Shown one piece after another: positions 2,881 through 15,038 of a DNA stretch of 60,823 nucleotides. The translations under genes were made by a program, and so were the position numbers. The DNA is taken from NCBI GenBank assembly GCA_938048755.1, contig CALIUG010000218.1, positions 1 to 60,823 of the forward strand, given 5' to 3'. The notes beneath the pieces are model-generated. The model saw only the letters and a program-made list of their open reading frames with translations. It did not search any database and was not told where the DNA came from. This DNA comes from an uncultured Alphaproteobacteria bacterium (GTDB lineage Bacteria; Pseudomonadota; Alphaproteobacteria; SP197). Position 1 is the first letter of the stretch. Each line of letters begins with the position of its first letter.

Positions 2881-3618
2881 TTAATCCCCCTTGAACGTCG
2901 GGGTGCGTTTTTCGCGGAAGGCAGCCAGGCCTTCCTGAAGGTCGTTGCTGGCAAAGGTCGCTTCGACCAGGCGGCGGGCCCAGCCGGCGCCTTCCATGGG
3001 GCCCTTGGGCATGACCTCATCGGCCAGGGTCTTGAGCGCGGCAACGACCAGTGGTGCGTTTTCGGCGACCTTCTCCGCAAGTGCGCGGGTTTCGCTCATC
3101 AGGTCGGTATCGGGCACGACCTTGTTGAAGAAGCCCAGTTCATAGGCGCGCGCCGCGCTCATCTTCTCGCCGGTCATGAGCAGTTCCATGGCGGCCTTGT
3201 GGGGCATGCGCGAGACGAGCGAAGCGATGATGCCGCCGGTGAAGCCGATCTTGGCTTCGGGATAGCTGATCCAGGCGCTTTCTGCCGCCACCGCCATGTC
3301 GGCCATCTGCACCAGACACAGGCCACCGCCGACGGTGAGTCCGTTGACCGCGGCGATGACCGGCTTGGTGAGCTTGACGCCCACGCCGGGTGTGATTGCC
3401 CACATGTCGCCGCCGCCGTTGAGATCGGCACCGGCGGTAAAGGCCCTGCCTGCACCGGTCAGGATGGCGACCCGGTCGTCGCCAGCCTCGAAATCAATCC
3501 ATGCCTGGCGCAGGGCATCGCCGAGCTCATGGCTGAGCGCATTGAGCTTGTCGGGCCGGTTGAGCGTGATCGTGGCGATGTGGTTGCTGGATTCATAGAG
3601 TACGGTGTCGGATGCCAT
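2881..3618 (-). CDS. Enoyl-CoA hydratase/isomerase (crotonase) family protein
   Basis: LNRPDKLNAL, FTAGADL, AVNGLTVGGG, YPEAKIG, C-terminal EGLAAFREKR. Confidence 0.92.
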   Translation of the reverse strand: MASDTVLYESSNHIATITLNRPDKLNALSHELGDALRQAWIDFEAGDDRVAILTGAGRAFTAGADLNGGGDMWAITPGVGVKLTKPVIAAVNGLTVGGGLCLVQMADMAVAAESAWISYPEAKIGFTGGIIASLVSRMPHKAAMELLMTGEKMSAARAYELGFFNKVVPDTDLMSETRALAEKVAENAPLVVAALKTLADEVMPKGPMEGAGWARRLVEATFASNDLQEGLAAFREKRTPTFKGD

Positions 3619-3747: not shown

Positions 3748-3853
3748 GAGCTCAAGGGCAGGCCTTCTAGGGCCGAGCGTAATGCATGCTGGTTTGGGAT
3801 GCACGGCACAGCAAGCAGCGCTAGGATCGCATTTGGTTGTCAGGAGTTCTTGC

Positions 3854-4768
3854 ATGATGAAGCTGGCGCGGTTTGATGCCCGTTCGACGGACGGGGACGA
3901 GGTCGGCAGGGCGATCGACGAACACGGGTATGCTATCGTCGAGAACATAATCGATGGTGACGATCTCGCTGCCCTGCGGGCCGAGCTGGAACCTCATTTC
4001 GAAGGTCAGAAGACCGGCGAGACGAACTTTCTGGGTGCCCGGACCAAACGCTTCAACAACCTCTTCATGCGTGCGCCCACGACGCGCAAGATGGTGCTGC
4101 ATCCGGTCCTTCTGGGTGCCGCCGACCATATCCTGCTGCCCTGGTGCGCGCGGTATCACGTGACCTATACCGGCGTGATGCACCTGATGCCTGGTGAAAC
4201 TGCCCAGGCACTGCACCGCGACGCATTTTTCTATCCCATCCGCAATCCCGGCCCGGTGACCCAGCAGGGTTCGCTTTGGGCCGTGACCGATTTCACGGCC
4301 GAGAACGGCGCCACGCGCATCATTCCCGGCAGCCATCTTTGGGAGGAGGAGCGCCAGCCCCGGCCCGAGGAGGTTGTCGCCGCCGAGATGCCGGCGGGCT
4401 CGGCGATCATCTATGCCCACAACATCATCCACGGCGGCGGCGCCAATACGACCGATCAACCGCGCACCGCCGTGGCGCTCAACTTCTCGCTGGGCTGGCT
4501 GCGCCAGCAGGAAAACCAGTTCCTGACCCTGCCGGTCGAGAAGGCCCGGGAACTGCCCGAAGCCCTGCAACGCCTGATCGGCTATGATTTCGGCGCGCCG
4601 TTCATGGGCGCGGTGAACGGCCAGAACCCGCATGCCCTGCTGGAGGAACCCAGCGACGAGGTGGGTTACCGCAGCGACCCGGAGCTCGAAAAGGCCTATC
4701 GTGAACGTGTGAACTGGCTGAAGGTCGAGGCGGTGCCGCCGCCACCCGGCGTTCTGCCGACGGACTGA
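3854..4768 (+). CDS. PhyH-family dioxygenase (copy 3)
   Basis: RBS CAGGAG at 3841, LHRDA, DFTAENGAT, IHGGGAN, LGWLRQQEN. Confidence 0.9.
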   Translation: MMKLARFDARSTDGDEVGRAIDEHGYAIVENIIDGDDLAALRAELEPHFEGQKTGETNFLGARTKRFNNLFMRAPTTRKMVLHPVLLGAADHILLPWCARYHVTYTGVMHLMPGETAQALHRDAFFYPIRNPGPVTQQGSLWAVTDFTAENGATRIIPGSHLWEEERQPRPEEVVAAEMPAGSAIIYAHNIIHGGGANTTDQPRTAVALNFSLGWLRQQENQFLTLPVEKARELPEALQRLIGYDFGAPFMGAVNGQNPHALLEEPSDEVGYRSDPELEKAYRERVNWLKVEAVPPPPGVLPTD

Positions 4769-4779
4769 CGGAGGAATCC

Positions 4780-5709
4780 ATGCCCGATCTCAATACCTTC
4801 CCCAACACCGCAAGTGTCGAAGAGGTCACGGCTTCGATCCACGAAAAGAGCTATGCCATCATCCATGATGTTCTCGACACGTCGGAACTTGCCTGCGTGC
4901 GTGACGAGCTTGCGCCGCATTTTGCCGAGCGGGTCGGCGGTTCCGACGATTTCACCGGCCACAAGACGGTGCGCTTCGGGGCCCTGCTGGCGCGTGTGCC
5001 CAAGGTGCGCGAGATGGTCCTGCATCCCCTGATCCACGGTATCGCCCAGGCGCTGCTGGGGCCCTCCTGTTCGAACATCCGCCTGAACTACACCGGCGTG
5101 ATGCATTTGGAACCTGGCGAAAAGGCACAGACGCTGCATCGCGACAGCGGGTTCTATCCCATCCAGAATCCCTGCCCGCCGCTGCTGCTGGCCACCATGT
5201 GGGCTATCTCGGACTTCACGCAGGAGAACGGCGGCACGCGGATCATCCCCGGCAGCCACCTCTGGGATGACAAGCGCAAGCCCGAACCCGAAGAGATCAT
5301 TGCCACGGAAATGCCCGCCGGTTCCGTGCTGCTCTACATCGGCGCGTCGTTCCACGGTGGCGGCGCCAACAAGGCGGCTGCCCCGCGCACCGGCATTGCC
5401 CTCCATTACGCGCTGGCCTGGCTGCGCCAGGAGGAAAACCAGTATCTGGCCGTGCCTCAGGACCTCGCGCGCACCTTCTCGCCCGAACTCAAGGCGCTGA
5501 TGGGTTATGAGCTTTCGACCGTAAACAGCGGCTTTGTCGATCACCAGCATCCTCGCGATGTTCTCGACGGCGTGCCTCCGGAAGGCCCGCGCCCGATCGG
5601 CCCGGCTGAACTGATGGCTGCCGACAACGCAATCAACCGGTTGCATGTCGACCGCGCCGAAGCCGTCGGGCGTGCCCGCCACGATGTGGTGGCGCCGTTT
5701 GACCGGTAG
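4780..5709 (+). CDS. PhyH-family dioxygenase (copy 4)
   Basis: RBS GGAGG, LHRDS, DFTQENGGT, FHGGGAN, LAWLRQEEN. Confidence 0.9.
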   Translation: MPDLNTFPNTASVEEVTASIHEKSYAIIHDVLDTSELACVRDELAPHFAERVGGSDDFTGHKTVRFGALLARVPKVREMVLHPLIHGIAQALLGPSCSNIRLNYTGVMHLEPGEKAQTLHRDSGFYPIQNPCPPLLLATMWAISDFTQENGGTRIIPGSHLWDDKRKPEPEEIIATEMPAGSVLLYIGASFHGGGANKAAAPRTGIALHYALAWLRQEENQYLAVPQDLARTFSPELKALMGYELSTVNSGFVDHQHPRDVLDGVPPEGPRPIGPAELMAADNAINRLHVDRAEAVGRARHDVVAPFDR

Positions 5710-6157: not shown

Positions 6158-6206
6158 GGGCGGACGCGCTCGCCCGACCCCTGAGGGACTAAAAAACTGC
6201 GCCCCT

Positions 6207-7349
6207 CTACTGCTTCGAAAGTTCGCCGATCAGGGCGTTGGCAGCCTGGTTCAGGGCAGGTCCGGCGTTGAAGTCGTACTCGTTGATCGCAACGTAGACG
6301 CCGATGTCGTGTGCCGGAGCAAAGGCGAGGTAGACCAGCATGCCCTGGATGCCGCCCGCCTTCTGCAGGATCATGGGGTGCTCTTCGCCGGCGTTCATGA
6401 CGACCCAGCCCAGTCCCATGGCGTCCATGTGTCCGGACTCGTCCATGCCGAACACCGAATCGAGACCATTGCGCGGCAGGTAGGCCGCCTGATCGATCAG
6501 GCGCACTTCGGCCCCTTACTGGTCCTCGTCGTTCATGTGCCAGGCCATCCAGCGCAGCAGGTCGTTGGTCGTGGACTGCAGCGCGCCGGAACCCTCGACC
6601 ATCTCGCCTGAGGGGATCTAGGGCAGCGGTGAGCCGTCGATGAAATGACCCTGCATGGCGATGGCCTGCTGCTCGGGCGTCAGGTTGTACATCGTGTCGG
6701 TCATGCCGGCGGGCTCCAGCACACGTTCACGCACCAGATCAGCGAAGGGCTGGCCTGCGGCCGAGGCAAGGGCTGCACTCAGGACATCGAAGCCGAAGTT
6801 GGAATAGATGATCCTCGTGCCCGGCGCATACACCAGCGGATCGTTGTTGAGGTTCTCGATGAATGCTTCCTGCGTCATCGTAGCATGGGGATTGTCGGCT
6901 GGGCCGTGCGCATGTTCGATCTCGCGCGGCAGACCGGCGCTGTGGGTCACCAGATCGATCAGGCGAATCTCGCGCCCGTCCATGGTCGGCCAGTCGATAT
7001 CCCAGTCGAGATGCATGGAAACGGGATCGGTGAAGTTGACCGTGCCGTCTGCTACCAGGCTGGCCAGCACCTGGCCGGTAAAGACCTTGCTCACCGACCC
7101 GATGCGCATGGGCGTATCCCCGTTGGGCGGCGCGCCCGCACCGTCGGCATATTCACCGAAACCTTCGACGAAGGTCTCGCCGTCCTTGATCGCGCCGATG
7201 ATGAAGCCCGGCGTGCCCGACTGGAGATAGAGGATCTGGCCCATGAAACCCACGGTTTCTTCCAGAAACTTGCTTTCGTCGGCGCGCGGCGCCGTCGTCA
7301 TGCCCAGCATGACAAGAAGCACAGTGGCGGTGCGGATAAGGGATTTCAT
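6207..7349 (-). pseudogene. AmpH-like serine hydrolase (beta-lactamase/D,D-peptidase fold) with two in-frame stops
   Basis: SxxK (GSVSK), YSN, LQKAGG. TAG at 6618-6620 and TAA at 6516-6518 are in frame, and the sequence stays colinear with the paralog at 7346-8518 across both. Confidence 0.85.
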
Positions 7350-8518
7350 GAGCGTTCCTTCCTTGGGACTGATTGTTGGGCGCTGAGTTCGCCGATGAGC
7401 GCATTGACTGCGGCGTTGACGCCGACTGTGGCGTTGAAGTCGAAGGCGTTGATGGCGGCAAAGATGCCGATGTTCCGGCCCGGTGCGAAGGCGCCGTAGA
7501 CCAGCATGCCCTGACGTCCGCCGGCCTTCTGCAGAATGACCGGGTGGCCTTCTCTGGCATTCATGACCACCCAGCCCAGGGCCATGCCATCCATGAAGCC
7601 GGACTCGTCCATGCCGAAGACGACATCCATGCCGTCGCGGGTGAGGTAGGTCGCATGATCGAGCAGGCGCACCTCGTCCCCTGCGGGATCGTTCCGGTCC
7701 ATGTGCCAGGCGAACCAATTCAGCATGTCGTTGGTCGTGGTGTAGAGGCCGCTGGAACCCACGACGACGGATCCGGTGGGAACATGGGGCATGGGCGCGC
7801 CGTTGGGCGCATGGCCCTGCATGGCGATGGCTTCCCGTTCGGGTGTGAGTTCAAACGTGGTGTCGGTCATGCCGGCGGGTTCGAGGACATACTGCTTTAG
7901 CAGATCCTCGTAGGGCCGGCTTGCTGCACCGGCCAGCGCATGGGCTAGAAGGTCGAAGCCGAAGTTGGAATAGGAGATGCCGGTGCCCGGCTTGAACATC
8001 AGCGGATCGGCATCAAGGTTGTCCTGATAGGCCTGCAGGGTCTTGTAGAGGAAAGGATCCTCTGGCGGGCCCTGGGGATGTTCGATCTCGCGCGGTAATC
8101 CGCCGCTATGGGTGACCAGATCGATCAGGCGCAGTTCACGGCCGTCGATCTGGGGCCATGTGATGTCCCAGTCCAGATGCATGGAAACCGGATCGGTGAA
8201 GCCGACCGTGCCGTCTGCAACCATGGCGGCCAGCACCTGGCCGGTGAAGGCCTTGGTGATCGAGCCGATGCGCATGGGCGTGTCACCATCGGGCTCGGCT
8301 TCGCTGCCATCGGCGTATTCACCGTGACCGGCCACAAAGGTCTCGCCGTCCTTGACGACACCGATGATGAATCCGGGGGTTTGGGCCTGAAGGTAGATGA
8401 TCTGGGACATGAAGCCGACGGTCTCTTCGAGAAGATCCGTGTCGGCGCGCGCGGTCTGCGAACCGGTTGTGCCAAGAACCAGCAATGTGGCCAGGGAGGT
8501 GATCAGGCGGTGGAACAT
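7346..8518 (-). CDS. AmpH-like secreted serine hydrolase (beta-lactamase/PBP fold)
   Basis: Signal peptide, GSITK, YSNFG, LQKAGG. Confidence 0.9.
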   Translation of the reverse strand: MFHRLITSLATLLVLGTTGSQTARADTDLLEETVGFMSQIIYLQAQTPGFIIGVVKDGETFVAGHGEYADGSEAEPDGDTPMRIGSITKAFTGQVLAAMVADGTVGFTDPVSMHLDWDITWPQIDGRELRLIDLVTHSGGLPREIEHPQGPPEDPFLYKTLQAYQDNLDADPLMFKPGTGISYSNFGFDLLAHALAGAASRPYEDLLKQYVLEPAGMTDTTFELTPEREAIAMQGHAPNGAPMPHVPTGSVVVGSSGLYTTTNDMLNWFAWHMDRNDPAGDEVRLLDHATYLTRDGMDVVFGMDESGFMDGMALGWVVMNAREGHPVILQKAGGRQGMLVYGAFAPGRNIGIFAAINAFDFNATVGVNAAVNALIGELSAQQSVPRKERS

Positions 8519-8542
8519 GGTGAAATCCAGTATGCGTGTCGA

Positions 8543-10219
8543 TCAGAAGCGGAAGCCCAGGGTAAAGAGTGCGCGACCGCCTTCATCCTCGACCGCGCTG
8601 CTCTTGATGGTGGGGATGGCGACAAAGCCGTCAACAAAGATGCCGTGGTCCAGGAAGGCCCGCATGCCTGCCCCGGCTGACCCCAGCCGTGCCGAACAGA
8701 AGGTCGTGCCGATGGCATCGTTGTGGACATAACCGTAATCGGCAAAGCCATAGACCGTGGAGTGGCGTACCCAGGACTGGCCGAAGTCGACGACATGTTC
8801 CAGCTCCACGGCAGCACCAAAACCGGAATCGCCTGCCACACCAAACCCTGCGAAGGCACGGCCGAAGGTCGCATCGCCGACACTGAAACGCACCGCATCA
8901 GGCAGCGGATCCGGGGCAAGCTGTCCCGTGGCCTGGAAGGTTGCCGAGCAGCCTGGCGCGATGTCGGCATCGAGTTGCAGGCTGCCGCTTGCCAGACGGA
9001 AATCGGCCTCACCGCCGAAGCGGCCTGCCAGGGCGCGACTGCCCGAGGTTGCGCCCAGGCTCGAAAGGCCGTGTGAGCCCGCAAGGCTTGCTGCCAGTGA
9101 GAGCACGTCGAAATCCTGATCATAGGCCGCTTCCAGCGTGATCCAGCGCGTGCGGTCGATGGTCGCGGGTGTGCCCATCACGTCAACATCCGTATTCTGG
9201 GCATTGAAGGTCAGGGTGCCGTCGAGATTGTGATCGAGCCTGCGGATGAAGGGATATTGCAGCGAGGCGACGCCGGTCAGCGTGGTGATCTCGATGTCGA
9301 AGGCTTCGAGGTCGCCGCCCGGTTCGACCAGAACGCCGGTCAGGGCATAACCGGCAAACAACCCGTCGCTGCCCACGGGATAGTCCTGACCGAAGTTCAC
9401 CAGCCGGAACTCGCTGGGGTCGGCGGGATTGGTGACACCCACCAGGGTCGATTGTTCGAACAGGCCCAGCACATCCCCGGCAAAGGCAACACCGGTGAGC
9501 TGCAACGGTCCGGTTTCGCGTGAGCCAAGGTTGTCGAGCGTGACCTGGCCGCCAATCCCCATCGGTGCAAGGTCGAGCGTAAGCCGCCCCGCGCCGACCT
9601 CGCCGGGGATCTGCTCCAGCAGGGCATTGACCCGATAACCGCCCAGATCGGAAATCAGCAACAGATACCGTTCCATCAGAGAGACCCGCAGCGGAACCAT
9701 TGCAGCGATCTTGTCGGTGTAGGGTTCCAGGCGCTGGTAGAGATCGCCGACCTCTCCGTTGATGATGATTTCCTTGATGTAACCGGTAAACACCTCGATC
9801 TCGATGGTGCCGGTGCCAAGGTCGATCTTAGTGACGATGGCGCGGGCGTAGTAATCGGCCTCCCGATAGACGCTCTCGATGGCGGCCGTAATTTCGGCCA
9901 TGGCGTCGTTGTCGATCTCTCTGCCCAGATAGGGCTGCCAGATCGGTTCGAGTTCGCTCCGGGGAACCAGGTCATCGCCGGTCAGGTCGACCGCCTGGAG
10001 GACCACCGTGAGGCCCACGATCTCGGGCGTCACGGCATCCTCGACATCGACCGTGACGCCAAGGCTACCCTGTTTCTCGGGCGGATTGCGGTAACGTTCG
10101 ATGATCTGGTTCTGATCGACGATGACATCGTCGATCTGCCGACTCTGGGCTGTAGCCTGTGTGGTCAGTCCGCCCGCCAGCAACGCTGCAACGCAGGTTC
10201 CGGCAAGGCCGCGCATCAT
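8543..10219 (-). CDS. ShlB/FhaC/HecB-family (TpsB, Omp85) outer-membrane transporter
   Basis: Signal peptide, POTRA-like N-terminus (YREADYYARA), loop-6-like FSVGDATFGRAF, C-terminal LFTLGFRF. ATGA overlap with the M23 stop. Confidence 0.85.
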   Translation of the reverse strand: MMRGLAGTCVAALLAGGLTTQATAQSRQIDDVIVDQNQIIERYRNPPEKQGSLGVTVDVEDAVTPEIVGLTVVLQAVDLTGDDLVPRSELEPIWQPYLGREIDNDAMAEITAAIESVYREADYYARAIVTKIDLGTGTIEIEVFTGYIKEIIINGEVGDLYQRLEPYTDKIAAMVPLRVSLMERYLLLISDLGGYRVNALLEQIPGEVGAGRLTLDLAPMGIGGQVTLDNLGSRETGPLQLTGVAFAGDVLGLFEQSTLVGVTNPADPSEFRLVNFGQDYPVGSDGLFAGYALTGVLVEPGGDLEAFDIEITTLTGVASLQYPFIRRLDHNLDGTLTFNAQNTDVDVMGTPATIDRTRWITLEAAYDQDFDVLSLAASLAGSHGLSSLGATSGSRALAGRFGGEADFRLASGSLQLDADIAPGCSATFQATGQLAPDPLPDAVRFSVGDATFGRAFAGFGVAGDSGFGAAVELEHVVDFGQSWVRHSTVYGFADYGYVHNDAIGTTFCSARLGSAGAGMRAFLDHGIFVDGFVAIPTIKSSAVEDEGGRALFTLGFRF

Positions 10220-11429
10220 GGTGCGGTCCAATCAACCAGCCACTGGTCCATGACCAGAAGATTCCGGTAGGGAACGGGCGGCGTGACCATGTCCAGCGGC
10301 ACCGGCACTCCGGTCGCTTCGGCCAGATCGAAGGCTTCGGTACCTTCGCTGTTGATGGCGGTCAGCAGGAAACTTTCGAAAACATAGGGCAGTCCGTCGG
10401 CATTCAGAGCCGAGGGCCCGTCCATGACATGGAGATGCAGATGCGGCGCGATAGTGTTGCCGCTATTGCCGATCAGGCCCAGAACGTCACCCTTGGCCAC
10501 CTGATCACCTTCCTTCACGGCTACGCTGCCGGGCGCAAAGTGGGCATAGAGCACATAGACGCCTTCGCTGATCTTCAGCACCACGTGGTTGCCGTCGGCC
10601 TCCTGGAAGGCAAGGCCTTCGGGCGCTTCACCGGGCACCTGATCGTCAAAAATGTCGACGGCAGCGACGACCAGGCCATCAGCCACGGCCAGGGCCGGTT
10701 TGCCATAGATGACATAGTTCTCGGGCACGGAAAGGTCGCCGGTGACCAGACGGCCCGAGGCATCGACCTGTTCCCAGTCGATCGCGAACCGTTGCGCCAG
10801 CCGCAGGCGCCCGTTGATCGGCAGTAGGGCACGGATATGGCGAATGGCATCACAACAGCCATCGGCGGCGAGGTAGTTTTTTCCAATAAAGGGAGCGCCC
10901 AGAACCGGCACATCCAAGGGCACGACATCCATGGCGTGAACGGGAATCTCGAGGCCTTCGCCCATGCCCTCAAGATCGACCGTCAGGCGATGATGGCGCA
11001 GTGCAGTGCAGTGGGAGCCGGCTGGTCGGCGGGAACGGCAACATGCATGAACAGAACGCCGTACCTGCCGCCCTCCAGGCTGTCGCTGTTATTGCCACGG
11101 CGACCGTCACGTTCAAAGCGCCACATGATGGCATCGGGATCCAGGGTTGCCAGAACCGTGGTGCCGTCCTGCGCAAAGACCTCGACTTCCCGGAGCGTCG
11201 CCAGGCCGCTGGTGATGTTCGTGATGACCAGCTCATAAACCAGATGGTTGGCGCCATCAGCACCCGGTGTGAGGTGGATCGGTGCCAGGCTGTCAGCAAG
11301 CACCAGGGTGAAAACTGGATCATCCCCGTCTGCCCGTGGATGGCTTGCCACGCCCAGGATCAGCAGCCCTATTGCAAGGGCAAGGCCATGCCTGGTCAGC
11401 GAGGCGCGGCAAATCAGCAGCTTGATCAT
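10216..11429 (-). pseudogene. M23-family metallopeptidase, frameshifted at (GCAGT)x3 10998-11012
   Basis: N-terminal signal/TM from ATG 11429. C-terminal GNSGNTIAPHLHLH. Removing one 5-bp unit joins the two frames (...PTALRHHRLTVDLEGMGEG...). Confidence 0.8.
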
Positions 11430-11617
11430 GATTACGACCCAAGATTGCGGAAATTCTGCAGGTCGGTGTCCTGCAGTACTCCAGATGTGAATCAGCCCCT
11501 GCGGCAGAGCATGCCCCCGTTGCACGGGGGTTACCAGCCTAAGGGACCACAATAGGTTCAGGCGCCCAACATGGCGTTATCGGAGAAGGGTTGACGGGTT
11601 ATTGCGGAGCAGAGAAA

Positions 11618-12604
11618 TCAGCCGGATTTTCGCTGCCCCACGTCCTGGGGCAAGGCATCGACCATGGCGCGGATGTGTTCGATGGTGGTGCCACAGCATC
11701 CGCCGATGATCTGGACGCCTGCCTCGACGTAACCACGGCACGCATCGGCAAATTCGGCTGGCGTGGCGCTCGCGTCCACATGACCTTCCTTGCGATCCGG
11801 GCGCAGGGTTTCGGGATAAGCCATGACCGGGCCGTCCCAGTGTTTGAACAGGACTTCAAGGCCAGGCTCGGTCGCTTCGATGGTGCTGTGCATGATGCCG
11901 AAGACATCACCGCCGATGGCCTTGAGGCTGGCGATGATCTCGCCGAGGTCGAGTGCATCACCGGGCTGGTAGTCGTCTCCGATGTTATGGGGCTCTTCCC
12001 GGGCCGGGTCCCAGCCGATCACGCGTCCGTCGTCGGTGACGCTGCAACTCAGGCCGACCCAAACGGGCAGACCCGTGGCAACAGCGGCTTCCAGGCACAG
12101 GCTGGCGCGTTCGACATCGCGCATCATCTCCAGAATCAGGAGATCGGCGCCTGCCTCGGCCAGAACATCGGCCATCTCGCGTTGATTGGCGGCTTCCTGT
12201 TTGGGTGTGGGGAAAAACTCTGGGTCGGGACTGACGGTGCCTTCGATCCAGGCCGTCATGTTGGACATGGAGCCTGCCACGGCCACGGGCCGGCTGGCGG
12301 CAACATTGTCGCGCGCCTGACGCGCCAGTTCGACCGCGCGCGTGTTGATCGCCACGGTCTGATCTTCCAGGCCTGCGCCGGCCAGCACATGGCGGCAGGT
12401 CGCAAAGGTGTTGGCGGTGATCACATCGGCACCGGCGCGCGCATATTCCTCATGCACCAGACGTACGGTGTTGGGGTGGGTCATGTTGGCCAGCGCACAC
12501 CAGGCCTTGCCGCTCATCTCGCCGCCCAGACGGGCGATTTCGCTGCCTGTTGCGCCATCAAGCACAATGACGGCCCCCGACTCGAGCTTGTCCTGCAGAA
12601 TCAT
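11618..12604 (-). CDS. Homocysteine S-methyltransferase family protein
   Basis: VLDGATGSEI, AGADVITANTF, IIGGCCG. Start at ATG 12604. Confidence 0.88.
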   Translation of the reverse strand: MILQDKLESGAVIVLDGATGSEIARLGGEMSGKAWCALANMTHPNTVRLVHEEYARAGADVITANTFATCRHVLAGAGLEDQTVAINTRAVELARQARDNVAASRPVAVAGSMSNMTAWIEGTVSPDPEFFPTPKQEAANQREMADVLAEAGADLLILEMMRDVERASLCLEAAVATGLPVWVGLSCSVTDDGRVIGWDPAREEPHNIGDDYQPGDALDLGEIIASLKAIGGDVFGIMHSTIEATEPGLEVLFKHWDGPVMAYPETLRPDRKEGHVDASATPAEFADACRGYVEAGVQIIGGCCGTTIEHIRAMVDALPQDVGQRKSG

Positions 12605-12763
12605 GTCCCGGCTTCCCCAAAAAGCACTGCCCCGACCGGGCCTCTCCCCAAAAGAGGCCCCGACGCTCAAGATTATCACAGGCAAACGGTGATTGTGGAA
12701 GAAGTCTGTTCGGCTCGAAACTGCCGGGCTAAGGTTGTCACCGGACAGTAAGAGGTCTGCGCC

Positions 12764-13708
12764 ATGACGCTTCAGAAGGTAAGTCCCGATACATCACTCG
12801 ATGCAATGTCTGCCATCATCGAATCCGACGGCTGTCTGGTAATCGAGAAACTGGCGCCGGACCTGGTGGCGCACGCCAAGGCCGAGCTTGACGACCACAT
12901 CGAGTCAGCCCCCTTCGGCCCCGGCAATTTTGCTGGAGAGCATGCCAAGAATGTCGAAGGTCTGGTCGGCAAATCCCAAGCCGCCCATCAGCTGATCATC
13001 CATGACACCGTGATGGCGCTGTGCGACCGTATCCTGCTGCCAAACTGCGTGCGTTATCAGGTGAACTATACCGGTATCATGCATCTGGAACCCGGCACAA
13101 TAGCCCAGCACGTCCATCGCGACGGGGATATGTACCCGTTCCGTCACCCCTGCCCTCCGGCCATTCTGGCGACCATGTGGGCGGGAACCGATTTCACGAA
13201 GGCCAATGGCGGCACCCAGATTGTTCCCGGCAGCCATCTCTGGGAGCATGGCCGTCAGGCCCGCCCTGATGAGATCGAGTATGCCGAAATGCCGGCAGGT
13301 TCGATCCTGGTCTATCTGGGCGGCCTGATTCACGGCGGCGGCGCCAACATCTCCAACACCAAACGTACCGGCATTTCCGTGCAGTACAGCCTGGGCTGGT
13401 TGCGCCAGGAGGAAAACCTGCACTTTGCCGTGCCTCCGGAACTGGCGAAAACCCTGCCCGACCGGTTGGCACGTCTGGTGGGCTACGACTTCGGCGGACC
13501 GTTCTGTGGTTTCGTCCATGGCGATGACCCCCATCGCCTGATCGAGGACACACCCTTGAGCGAACGTTGCCACACCTATCCTGAACTCAACGAGCGTGCT
13601 GCCTCGCTGCAGCGTTTCCGTTGGGGTGACATCGAACCGGCGCCGACGCCGCCGGAATCCAAGGTTGCCGAAAAACTCCCCTACAATTCTGTCGCGGACA
13701 TGAACTAG
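12764..13708 (+). CDS. PhyH-family dioxygenase (copy 5)
   Basis: VHRDG, DFTKANGGT, IHGGGAN, LGWLRQEEN. Confidence 0.9.
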   Translation: MTLQKVSPDTSLDAMSAIIESDGCLVIEKLAPDLVAHAKAELDDHIESAPFGPGNFAGEHAKNVEGLVGKSQAAHQLIIHDTVMALCDRILLPNCVRYQVNYTGIMHLEPGTIAQHVHRDGDMYPFRHPCPPAILATMWAGTDFTKANGGTQIVPGSHLWEHGRQARPDEIEYAEMPAGSILVYLGGLIHGGGANISNTKRTGISVQYSLGWLRQEENLHFAVPPELAKTLPDRLARLVGYDFGGPFCGFVHGDDPHRLIEDTPLSERCHTYPELNERAASLQRFRWGDIEPAPTPPESKVAEKLPYNSVADMN

Positions 13709-13720
13709 GGAATAAGGCCG

Positions 13721-14668
13721 ATGCCTACGCTTAACCTGCACGCGCCCGATACCCCAGCCGATCAGCTGCACGCTTCGCTGATGGAACAGGGTTACCTCAT
13801 CATCGAGGAACTCGCAGTCGATCAGGCAGCGAAGGTGTCGGCGGAACTGGCGGAGGATATCGAAGCCGCACCCTTTGGCCATGACGCGTTCCTGGGGCCA
13901 CGCACCAAACGGCTGGGACGTGTCCTTGCTCGCTCTCCCGCAGCGCGGGAACTGGCGATCCACCCCACGGTCATGGCCCTGTGTGATGCCACGCTGCTTC
14001 CCAATGCCTGCAACTACCAGCTCAACTTCACCGGCATCATGCATCTCGAACCCGGTGCCAAGGCACAGGCCCTGCACCGGGATGGCCTGATCTATCCGTT
14101 TCGCCAACCCTGCCCGCCGATGATCATGCCGGCCATGTGGGCGCTTTCGGAATTCACGGCAGAGAATGGCGGCACGCAGATCGCTCCGGGCAGTCATGTC
14201 TGGGAACACGACCGCGCACCGTTTCCCGATGAAGTGGTGAATACGGCCATGCCTGCGGGATCCGTGCTGCTATATCTGGGCGGCACCTGGCATGGCGGCG
14301 GCGACAACCATTCCAGCACGGTGCGCACCGGCCTTGCCCTGCAATACAGCCTCTCCTGGCTGCGCCAGGAAGAAAACCAGTACCTTGCCAACCCGCCGGA
14401 AGTCGCCAGGGACTATCCCGAGCGGTTGCGCCGGCTTATCGGTTACGATTTTGGCGGGCCGTATCTTGGATTCCATAACGGCGATGATCCCCACCGCGTG
14501 TTCGAGCCCGATTATGACGGTCCACCCATGCGCTCGCGTCCCGAGCTTGATGCGCGATCGACCAACAATACGCTTTTGCGGGTTGGCGATGTCGAGGCCG
14601 TGCCGACACCCGACCGCAAAGGCGAGCGCGTTGCGGCCTTGTCGCGCCAGCCAAAGATCGAAACCTGA
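13721..14668 (+). CDS. PhyH-family dioxygenase (copy 6)
   Basis: LHRDG, EFTAENGGT, WHGGGDN, LSWLRQEEN. Confidence 0.9.
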   Translation: MPTLNLHAPDTPADQLHASLMEQGYLIIEELAVDQAAKVSAELAEDIEAAPFGHDAFLGPRTKRLGRVLARSPAARELAIHPTVMALCDATLLPNACNYQLNFTGIMHLEPGAKAQALHRDGLIYPFRQPCPPMIMPAMWALSEFTAENGGTQIAPGSHVWEHDRAPFPDEVVNTAMPAGSVLLYLGGTWHGGGDNHSSTVRTGLALQYSLSWLRQEENQYLANPPEVARDYPERLRRLIGYDFGGPYLGFHNGDDPHRVFEPDYDGPPMRSRPELDARSTNNTLLRVGDVEAVPTPDRKGERVAALSRQPKIET

Positions 14669-14684
14669 ACAGGGAGACAAAGCC

Positions 14685-15038
14685 ATGTCCGGCATCCGTT
14701 ACGTCAAACCCGCCGACCGTGTGTTCGAGCAGATCGGTGGGCCGCCCGGAAAGATCACCGTCGCGCGCGATGTCTCCAAGAACGAAAGCGAGACCTTCGG
14801 TGCCTCGGTCGGCACCTTCGAGAACTGCGAGATGGAATGGACCGTCCTTTATGACGAGTACATCTACATCCTCGAAGGCAAGCTGAACCTTGAAACCAAA
14901 GAGGGCACCTTCGACATGGAGCCCGGCGACGGAATCTGGCTGCCCAACGGAAGCTGGATGATCTACCGCGCCGAATACGCCAAGGCGGTGATCGTCGTGC
15001 ACCCGGTCAACTGGCGCGATATCCACGGTATCGCCTGA
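14685..15038 (+). CDS. EutQ-like cupin
   Basis: RBS GGGAGA, EWTVLYDEYIYILEG, PGDGIWLPNG. Confidence 0.8.
   Translation: MSGIRYVKPADRVFEQIGGPPGKITVARDVSKNESETFGASVGTFENCEMEWTVLYDEYIYILEGKLNLETKEGTFDMEPGDGIWLPNGSWMIYRAEYAKAVIVVHPVNWRDIHGIA

Follow-up and report, generated by a model that had tools for sequence, protein, structure and literature searches.

Proteins of the TpsB family are Omp85 pores, and reviews describe them as translocases for haemagglutinin-like partners (TpsA) that carry a two-partner secretion (TPS) domain (PMC4104836, PMC5422565). A second system, type Vd (PlpD and FplA), also ties an Omp85 barrel with a POTRA domain to a hydrolase, and its topology (exported vs. periplasmic) is debated (PMC11116518; PMC4104836). 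Here we describe a TpsB-like gene from an uncultured Alphaproteobacteria bacterium of the GTDB lineage SP197 (assembly GCA_938048755.1), which lies on contig CALIUG010000218.1; the window analysed was the whole of positions 1 to 60,823. The gene belongs to a cluster at 6207-11429, together with an M23 peptidase gene and two genes for AmpH-like serine hydrolases of family S12 (PF00144). An earlier analysis of the letters alone (the sequence-only reading) had proposed that this barrel lacks a passenger and forms an operon with three peptidoglycan-hydrolase-like proteins. Our comparison of gene neighbourhoods shows a conserved and transferable pairing of a TpsB subfamily with putatively exported hydrolases in the absence of TpsA. 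In type Vd the patatin lipase is fused to the barrel, whereas the S12 and M23 proteins found here are separate and have their own signal peptides. We found no literature linking TpsB to S12, AmpH-type, or serine hydrolases, and the partner type (S12 hydrolases with TpsB) appears to be undescribed.

The TpsB-like barrel and the search for TpsA

The TpsB-like gene (8543-10219, minus strand) is intact, and no other ShlB-family gene occurs in the genome. Its 558-aa Omp85 product has a signal peptide and the H1 helix, together with two POTRA domains and a barrel of 16 strands. The Pfam matches are POTRA_2 (34.1 bits, cut-off 24) and ShlB (44.4 bits, cut-off 22.7). The AlphaFold2 model (pLDDT 85.6, pTM 0.80) has a helix extending to residue 42, two beta-alpha-alpha-beta-beta units, and 16 long strands. 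When this model was searched with Foldseek, the best match was CdiB (6wim, E 6e-32, TM 0.71) followed by FhaC, over about 545 columns, and both ranked ahead of BamA and TamA. The barrel contains the motif FADYG, whose Asp is invariant in the clade described below, and the L6 tip GRAF aligns to VRGF of CdiB with the Ala and Phe conserved. The protein thus appears to share with the type Vb transporters FhaC, CdiB, and ShlB the POTRA_2 plus ShlB architecture, the predicted H1 helix, two POTRA domains and 16 strands, and the FxDxG motif. It differs from them in three respects: there is no adjacent or genomic TpsA or TPS domain, the neighbours are globular hydrolases of 380-550 aa, and the L6 tip is GRAF instead of VRGY/F, with an Arg that varies within the clade.

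A search for the TPS domain PF05860 gave 0 matches in the window and 0 in the whole metagenome-assembled genome (MAG; 301 contigs, 92.7% complete). The sequence-only reading was therefore right that this TpsB has no visible passenger, and the genome-wide scan it had called for reveals no distant TpsA that would account for the pore. The search is sensitive, since it matches three times in an Azospirillum genome used as positive control, whose TpsB homolog adjoins a 3131-aa TpsA. We also built a custom TPS hidden Markov model from eight alphaproteobacterial TPS domains and searched the six-frame open reading frames of the genome; nothing was found at E<=10, and control loci outside the training set were recovered. 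Five other genomes that carry a member of the clade (Amorphus coralli, two Chachezhania species, a Thalassobaculum MAG, and one more MAG) have no TPS domain either, and their ShlB-family genes are clade members only. TPS domains are thus absent from six clade-bearing genomes in total, three of them from cultured isolates.

These results bear on the simplest alternative, ordinary two-partner secretion, in which the TpsA gene is elsewhere or in the 7% of the MAG that is not assembled and the hydrolases are bystanders. The incomplete, fragmented assembly leaves room for such a gene, and two clade-bearing genomes (G067 and G068) do encode TPS-domain proteins. These two genomes, however, also have extra ShlB-family genes, one of which shares a contig with a TpsA, and all TpsA-linked homologs fall outside the clade. 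With six TPS-free genomes and a working positive control, we consider a hidden TpsA highly improbable. In Chachezhania antarctica a 1035-aa RTX-repeat (HemolysinCabind) protein is encoded right after the second TpsB locus (L076, 11490-14597, minus strand); it has no TPS-domain match in the genome search.

The hydrolase-linked clade and its partner genes

Close relatives of the window TpsB are rare: a set of 5.8 billion clustered proteins yielded only 34 homologs. When 1.84 billion representatives were searched with a profile, 16 full-length clusters scored 505-745 bits; the next scores were <=370 bits and belong to the general TpsB continuum (3,337 proteins at E<=1e-30). In a maximum-likelihood tree all hydrolase-linked TpsB homologs fall in one clade (19 rows, support 100/100), and the TpsA-linked and FecR/CHASE2-linked homologs lie outside it. 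We defined the clade by this tree together with the gap in profile scores; at 50% identity it comprises about 16-18 clusters out of the 1.84 billion representatives. A plain bit-score cut-off was rejected as a definition, because both TpsA-linked (L073) and CHASE2-linked (L072) homologs occur at about 250 bits. The clade members come from three orders, namely Hyphomicrobiales (Amorphus coralli, Azorhizobium and Rhizobiales MAGs), Rhodobacterales (Chachezhania sediminis and C. antarctica), and Rhodospirillales (Thalassobaculum and a Rhodospirillaceae MAG). Of 400 genomes sampled evenly across the class, only one more had a clade member, and the module occurs in <1% of the sampled class members.

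Among the homologs outside the clade, two with about 31% identity to the window TpsB have signalling genes as neighbours. One adjoins a FecR-domain protein and a CHASE2 histidine kinase (L050, 3861-9289), and the other a CHASE2 adenylate cyclase (L072, 3267-7165). These barrels are likewise TpsB-family proteins of Alphaproteobacteria without a TpsA; their partners are signalling proteins, not hydrolases.

Lineages were counted as informative when both sides of TpsB could be judged. In 14 of the 18 informative lineages, PF00144/S12 genes adjoin TpsB. The S12 partners include AmpH-type proteins of about 390 aa, a class of 400-440 aa, and a 540-aa class with DUF3471; they occur in one to four copies and are located upstream, downstream, or divergent of TpsB. 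In L015 an alpha/beta hydrolase whose C-terminus is TAP-like is also encoded. In Amorphus coralli DSM 19760 (L008), an AmpH-type gene and three S12 genes accompany TpsB. All partners have N-terminal signal peptides, and the outer flanking genes are unrelated between loci. It could be argued that such adjacency is due to chance or inherited synteny, with barrel and hydrolases functionally unlinked, given that PF00144 genes are fairly common (5-19 per genome) and that four clade members (L011, L056, L057, and L071) have no adjacent S12 gene. From the same background, however, only about 1% of TpsB genes would be expected to have a PF00144 gene among the four nearest genes, against 14 of 18 lineages observed. 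The arrangements and S12 subfamilies also differ between loci while the flanks are unrelated, and therefore the pairing has persisted despite rearrangement and transfer across the three orders. We regard chance or mere inheritance of gene order as extremely improbable and conclude that this TpsB subfamily is very likely coupled functionally with hydrolases.

Judged from these gene orders, the conserved core is TpsB plus one or more S12 hydrolases, often with a dedicated regulator, and not the M23-TpsB-AmpH trio. The conserved neighbourhood that the sequence-only reading suggested looking for thus holds for the TpsB-S12 pairing and fails for the trio as a unit. An M23 ortholog is found directly upstream of TpsB in the window, L046, and L057, three lineages of the window's subclade, and because it occurs upstream only in these, the M23 link is confined to that subclade. 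The candidate regulators, present in several loci, are either a helix-turn-helix (HTH)-like protein of 320 aa or a Trans_reg_C protein (one with an AAA domain). The HTH-like protein is conserved in Thalassobaculum-type loci, where it is divergent from TpsB and has no Pfam match (minus strand; L002 8043-9020, L004 1056-2027, L009 8577-9536, and L071 ~6875-7810). We considered it as a possible cargo and rejected this, since it lacks a signal peptide and its N-terminus is HTH-like; for the same reasons it is probably a dedicated regulator.

Among the partners in the window, AmpH1 (7346-8518, minus strand) is the intact one; it is an S12 serine hydrolase of the AmpH type, 390 aa long, and begins with a Sec signal peptide. 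It matches PF00144 (beta-lactamase, 171 bits) and scores above the cut-off of the NCBIfam AmpH equivalog (310 vs. 266 bits, profile positions 11-379 of 380). Among solved structures, the closest to it is 3ozh, a beta-lactamase/D-Ala carboxypeptidase from Yersinia (E 1e-47). AmpH1 aligns end to end with proteins of this type and has the SxxK and YxN motifs. The catalytic motifs SITK, YSN, and KAG are conserved in TpsB-linked orthologs elsewhere. Both the Yersinia and the E. coli protein (a DD-carboxypeptidase/endopeptidase of class C beta-lactamase fold) differ from AmpH1 in the third motif, which is KAG in the window and KSG in L005 and L014, not KTG; the Lys and Gly are invariant. AmpH1 also shares an operon with an outer-membrane barrel gene, and we know of no such operon partner for E. 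coli ampH. Some PF00144 enzymes are esterases or use other substrates. The sequence-only reading had called all three neighbours peptidoglycan-hydrolase-like; family-level evidence suggests that the AmpH-type partners may act on peptidoglycan, and this evidence is confined to them and does not extend to the S12 partners of 400-550 aa or the alpha/beta hydrolase.

A second, lone clade TpsB of Chachezhania sediminis lies on a plasmid-like contig of 15.6 kb (L011, contig23, 6544-14732), which also carries ParA/RepB partition genes and a Mutator-family transposase. This setting hints at a route by which the module moves.

Proposed export and rival roles of the barrel

Our tentative preference is that the hydrolases are exported or displayed at the surface through the barrel, independently of a TPS domain, because the full transporter anatomy is kept and the neighbours vary in the way cargo does. 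By analogy, the multiple and varied neighbouring hydrolases and the common tpsB-then-partner order would resemble transporter-cargo loci. We propose that the subfamily may have exchanged TpsA, the usual cargo, for Sec-exported hydrolases, chiefly S12/PF00144 and, in the window's subclade, M23 as well. The hydrolases would reach the periplasm via Sec, where the POTRA domains would recognise them without a TPS domain; they would then go through or onto the barrel and act outside or at the cell surface. Possible roles are the scavenging of D-amino-acid peptides or wall fragments and attack on the walls of neighbouring cells. That a TpsB-type pore recognises and exports globular S12/M23 hydrolases lacking both a TPS domain and a beta-helix is a possibility that we hold with somewhat more reserve than export or display in general.

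Several observations weigh against export. Folding of the beta-helix, which is thought to drive TpsA export, is absent in globular alpha/beta enzymes. The L6 arginine is important in FhaC, and several clade members have Gln or Trp in its place. AmpH1 runs collinear to AmpH of the E. coli type without any added domain, and no export tag shared among the partner classes was seen at the N- or C-terminus by eye (no motif-finding program was run). Barrel-hydrolase fusions were not found among seven long relatives, and long TpsB relatives carry only extra POTRA or AMIN domains. The four clade members without an adjacent S12 gene point in the same direction. Finally, PlpD, an Omp85 protein long thought to export its lipase domain, retains this domain in the periplasm (PMC11116518).

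The PlpD result also favours the main rival, a periplasmic docking or control platform, in which the POTRA domains of the outer-membrane barrel bind, position, or regulate the hydrolases for wall or envelope remodelling and nothing is exported. The unsuccessful inspection for an export signal and the variable L6 arginine are in keeping with such a platform, and the nearest non-clade relatives are paired with FecR/CHASE2 signalling proteins, not cargo. AmpH and M23 enzymes normally act in the periplasm, on peptidoglycan. On the other side, the variety of the partners (four S12 classes, M23, and an alpha/beta hydrolase, in one to four copies) suits cargo better, and the barrel has kept the plug helix predicted by the model and the rest of the transporter anatomy. 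The module is also dispensable and patchy in the class, which would be unusual for core envelope upkeep. On balance we consider docking somewhat less likely than export or surface display, which remains our preferred reading.

The partners are degradative enzymes with signal peptides and the named hosts of the clade are mostly marine or soil heterotrophs, both of which would fit an uptake channel, that is, a barrel that admits peptides or wall fragments for degradation by the neighbouring periplasmic hydrolases. We know of no Omp85 or TpsB protein that imports solutes, however, and the predicted pore has a plug helix. No uptake or recycling genes are conserved around the module in the loci compared, and no inner-membrane peptide transporter is among the conserved genes. 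We therefore judge uptake to be improbable.

TpsB transporters are taught as dedicated to TPS cargo, yet this clade keeps the transporter anatomy in TpsA-free genomes and is tied to putatively exported hydrolases. If the hydrolases are exported, an Omp85 translocator would not be bound to TpsA-type cargo, and type V secretion would be broadened by a new branch that provides a route for wall-active or peptide-degrading enzymes to the exterior. If they are docked, the clade would be the second case after PlpD of an Omp85 scaffold with a periplasmic hydrolase. Client choice by an Omp85 pore becomes directly testable in Amorphus coralli and Chachezhania, which are cultured and non-pathogenic.

Gene layout, decay of the module, and flanking genes

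In the window the genes are arranged in the order M23 > TpsB > AmpH1 > AmpH2, all on the minus strand. The stop of the M23 gene overlaps the start of TpsB (ATGA, 10216-10219), the stop of AmpH1 overlaps the start of AmpH2 (ATGA, 7346-7349), and TpsB and AmpH1 are separated by a 24-bp spacer (8519-8542). Just 3' of AmpH2, a consensus scan located a terminator-like GC-rich hairpin followed by a T-run (6158-6176, minus strand). The four genes would be transcribed together as a single minus-strand unit that extends from about 11429 down to about 6150. The gene order, overlaps, and spacer are exactly those of the sequence-only reading, and its domain families were recovered by Pfam and NCBIfam (M23, POTRA_2 plus ShlB, and PF00144); with these and the hairpin, the earlier observation is real in outline. 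Its coupled four-gene operon stands as regards order and overlaps, but M23 and AmpH2 are pseudogenes here. Only TpsB and AmpH1 are intact, since a frameshift disrupts M23 and two nonsense codons interrupt AmpH2.

The M23 gene is split in two. The N-terminal part (10983-11429, minus strand) encodes a signal peptide and an N-domain without Pfam match and stops at a TGA (10983-10985); the C-terminal catalytic part (10216-10965, minus strand) is in another frame, and the frame breaks between 10965 and 10983. The break is located at a (CACTG)x3 run (10999-11013, minus strand), the site of a 5-bp duplication that shifts the frame. In the L046 locus, whose TpsB is 81% identical, there are two CACTG copies and M23 reads through as PTALRHRLTVDLEG; therefore the window M23 carries a 5-bp tandem duplication. 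The same three copies and the same frameshift are present in L045, an independent public assembly with 99.6% identity. The M23 gene is intact in L046 and L057. The N-terminal part is 89% identical to that of L046 and 45% identical to that of the intact 377-aa L057 ortholog; the C-terminal part is 66% identical to the latter, and the TpsB of L057 is 48% identical to the window TpsB. The catalytic part matches Peptidase_M23 (54 bits), and its motifs YAHF and PHLHLH, which represent the HxH and catalytic His motifs, have counterparts in zoocin A and lysostaphin-type enzymes. For the first zinc-ligand motif, HxxxD, the best candidate segment is RFAID (RYAID in L057) with Arg at the expected His, and the Pfam alignment begins only at profile position 12.

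AmpH2 (6207-7349, minus strand) is a second AmpH-type gene, 66% identical to AmpH1, and matches the AmpH model only in two pieces owing to its stop codons. The in-frame stops are TAG at 6618-6620 and TAA at 6516-6518 (in this assembly alone); at these positions a same-genus remnant in genome G021 carries His and Val codons. Stop-codon recoding was considered and rejected, as TAA, TAG, and TGA occur equally often within coding-like same-frame sequence genome-wide (6.5-7.7%). The presence of two different stop codons in AmpH2 also disfavours it, and no suppressor tRNA was found in the genome. Outside the window, two further PF00144 genes of the same MAG have an in-frame TAG in conserved sequence (C285, 2854-3840, minus strand, and C268, 8532-9464, plus strand), in one of them just before the YSN motif. 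Including AmpH2, 3 of the 17 PF00144 copies in this MAG look broken; a genome-wide TAG bias is absent.

This TpsB is absent from all 22 same-genus genomes and all 10 same-family genomes, and remnants of the module were detected in two genomes of the genus. G021 has a 5'-truncated and frameshifted AmpH1/AmpH2 chimera without the SxxK region (L044, contig C235, 5224-6040), which suggests a deletion by recombination between the tandem paralogs. G018 has a 410-bp fragment at the syntenic place (L043, contig C1, 7909-8318), adjoining homologs of the genes at 12.7-17 kb of the window. The L046 locus has its intact M23 gene, but a TAA follows FADYG in TpsB and about 66 residues are lost. Comparison of the window with L046 gave ratios of non-synonymous to synonymous substitution rates (dN/dS) of 0.19 (TpsB) and 0.14 (catalytic part of M23); these values show that purifying selection acted until recently, and the differing lesions are independent and late. 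We are highly confident that the module is decaying in this lineage. The window copy is a decaying relic in which TpsB and AmpH1 alone could still function. In the annotation of this genome the two pseudogenes should be flagged and the operon should not be listed as functional.

The TpsB cluster is flanked on both sides by tandem gene pairs for PhyH-type 2-oxoglutarate dioxygenases (3782-5709 and 12764-14668), so that the hydrolase module is placed between paralogous dioxygenase pairs. Alongside these pairs are an enoyl-CoA hydratase gene (2881-3618) and a homocysteine S-methyltransferase gene (11618-12685).

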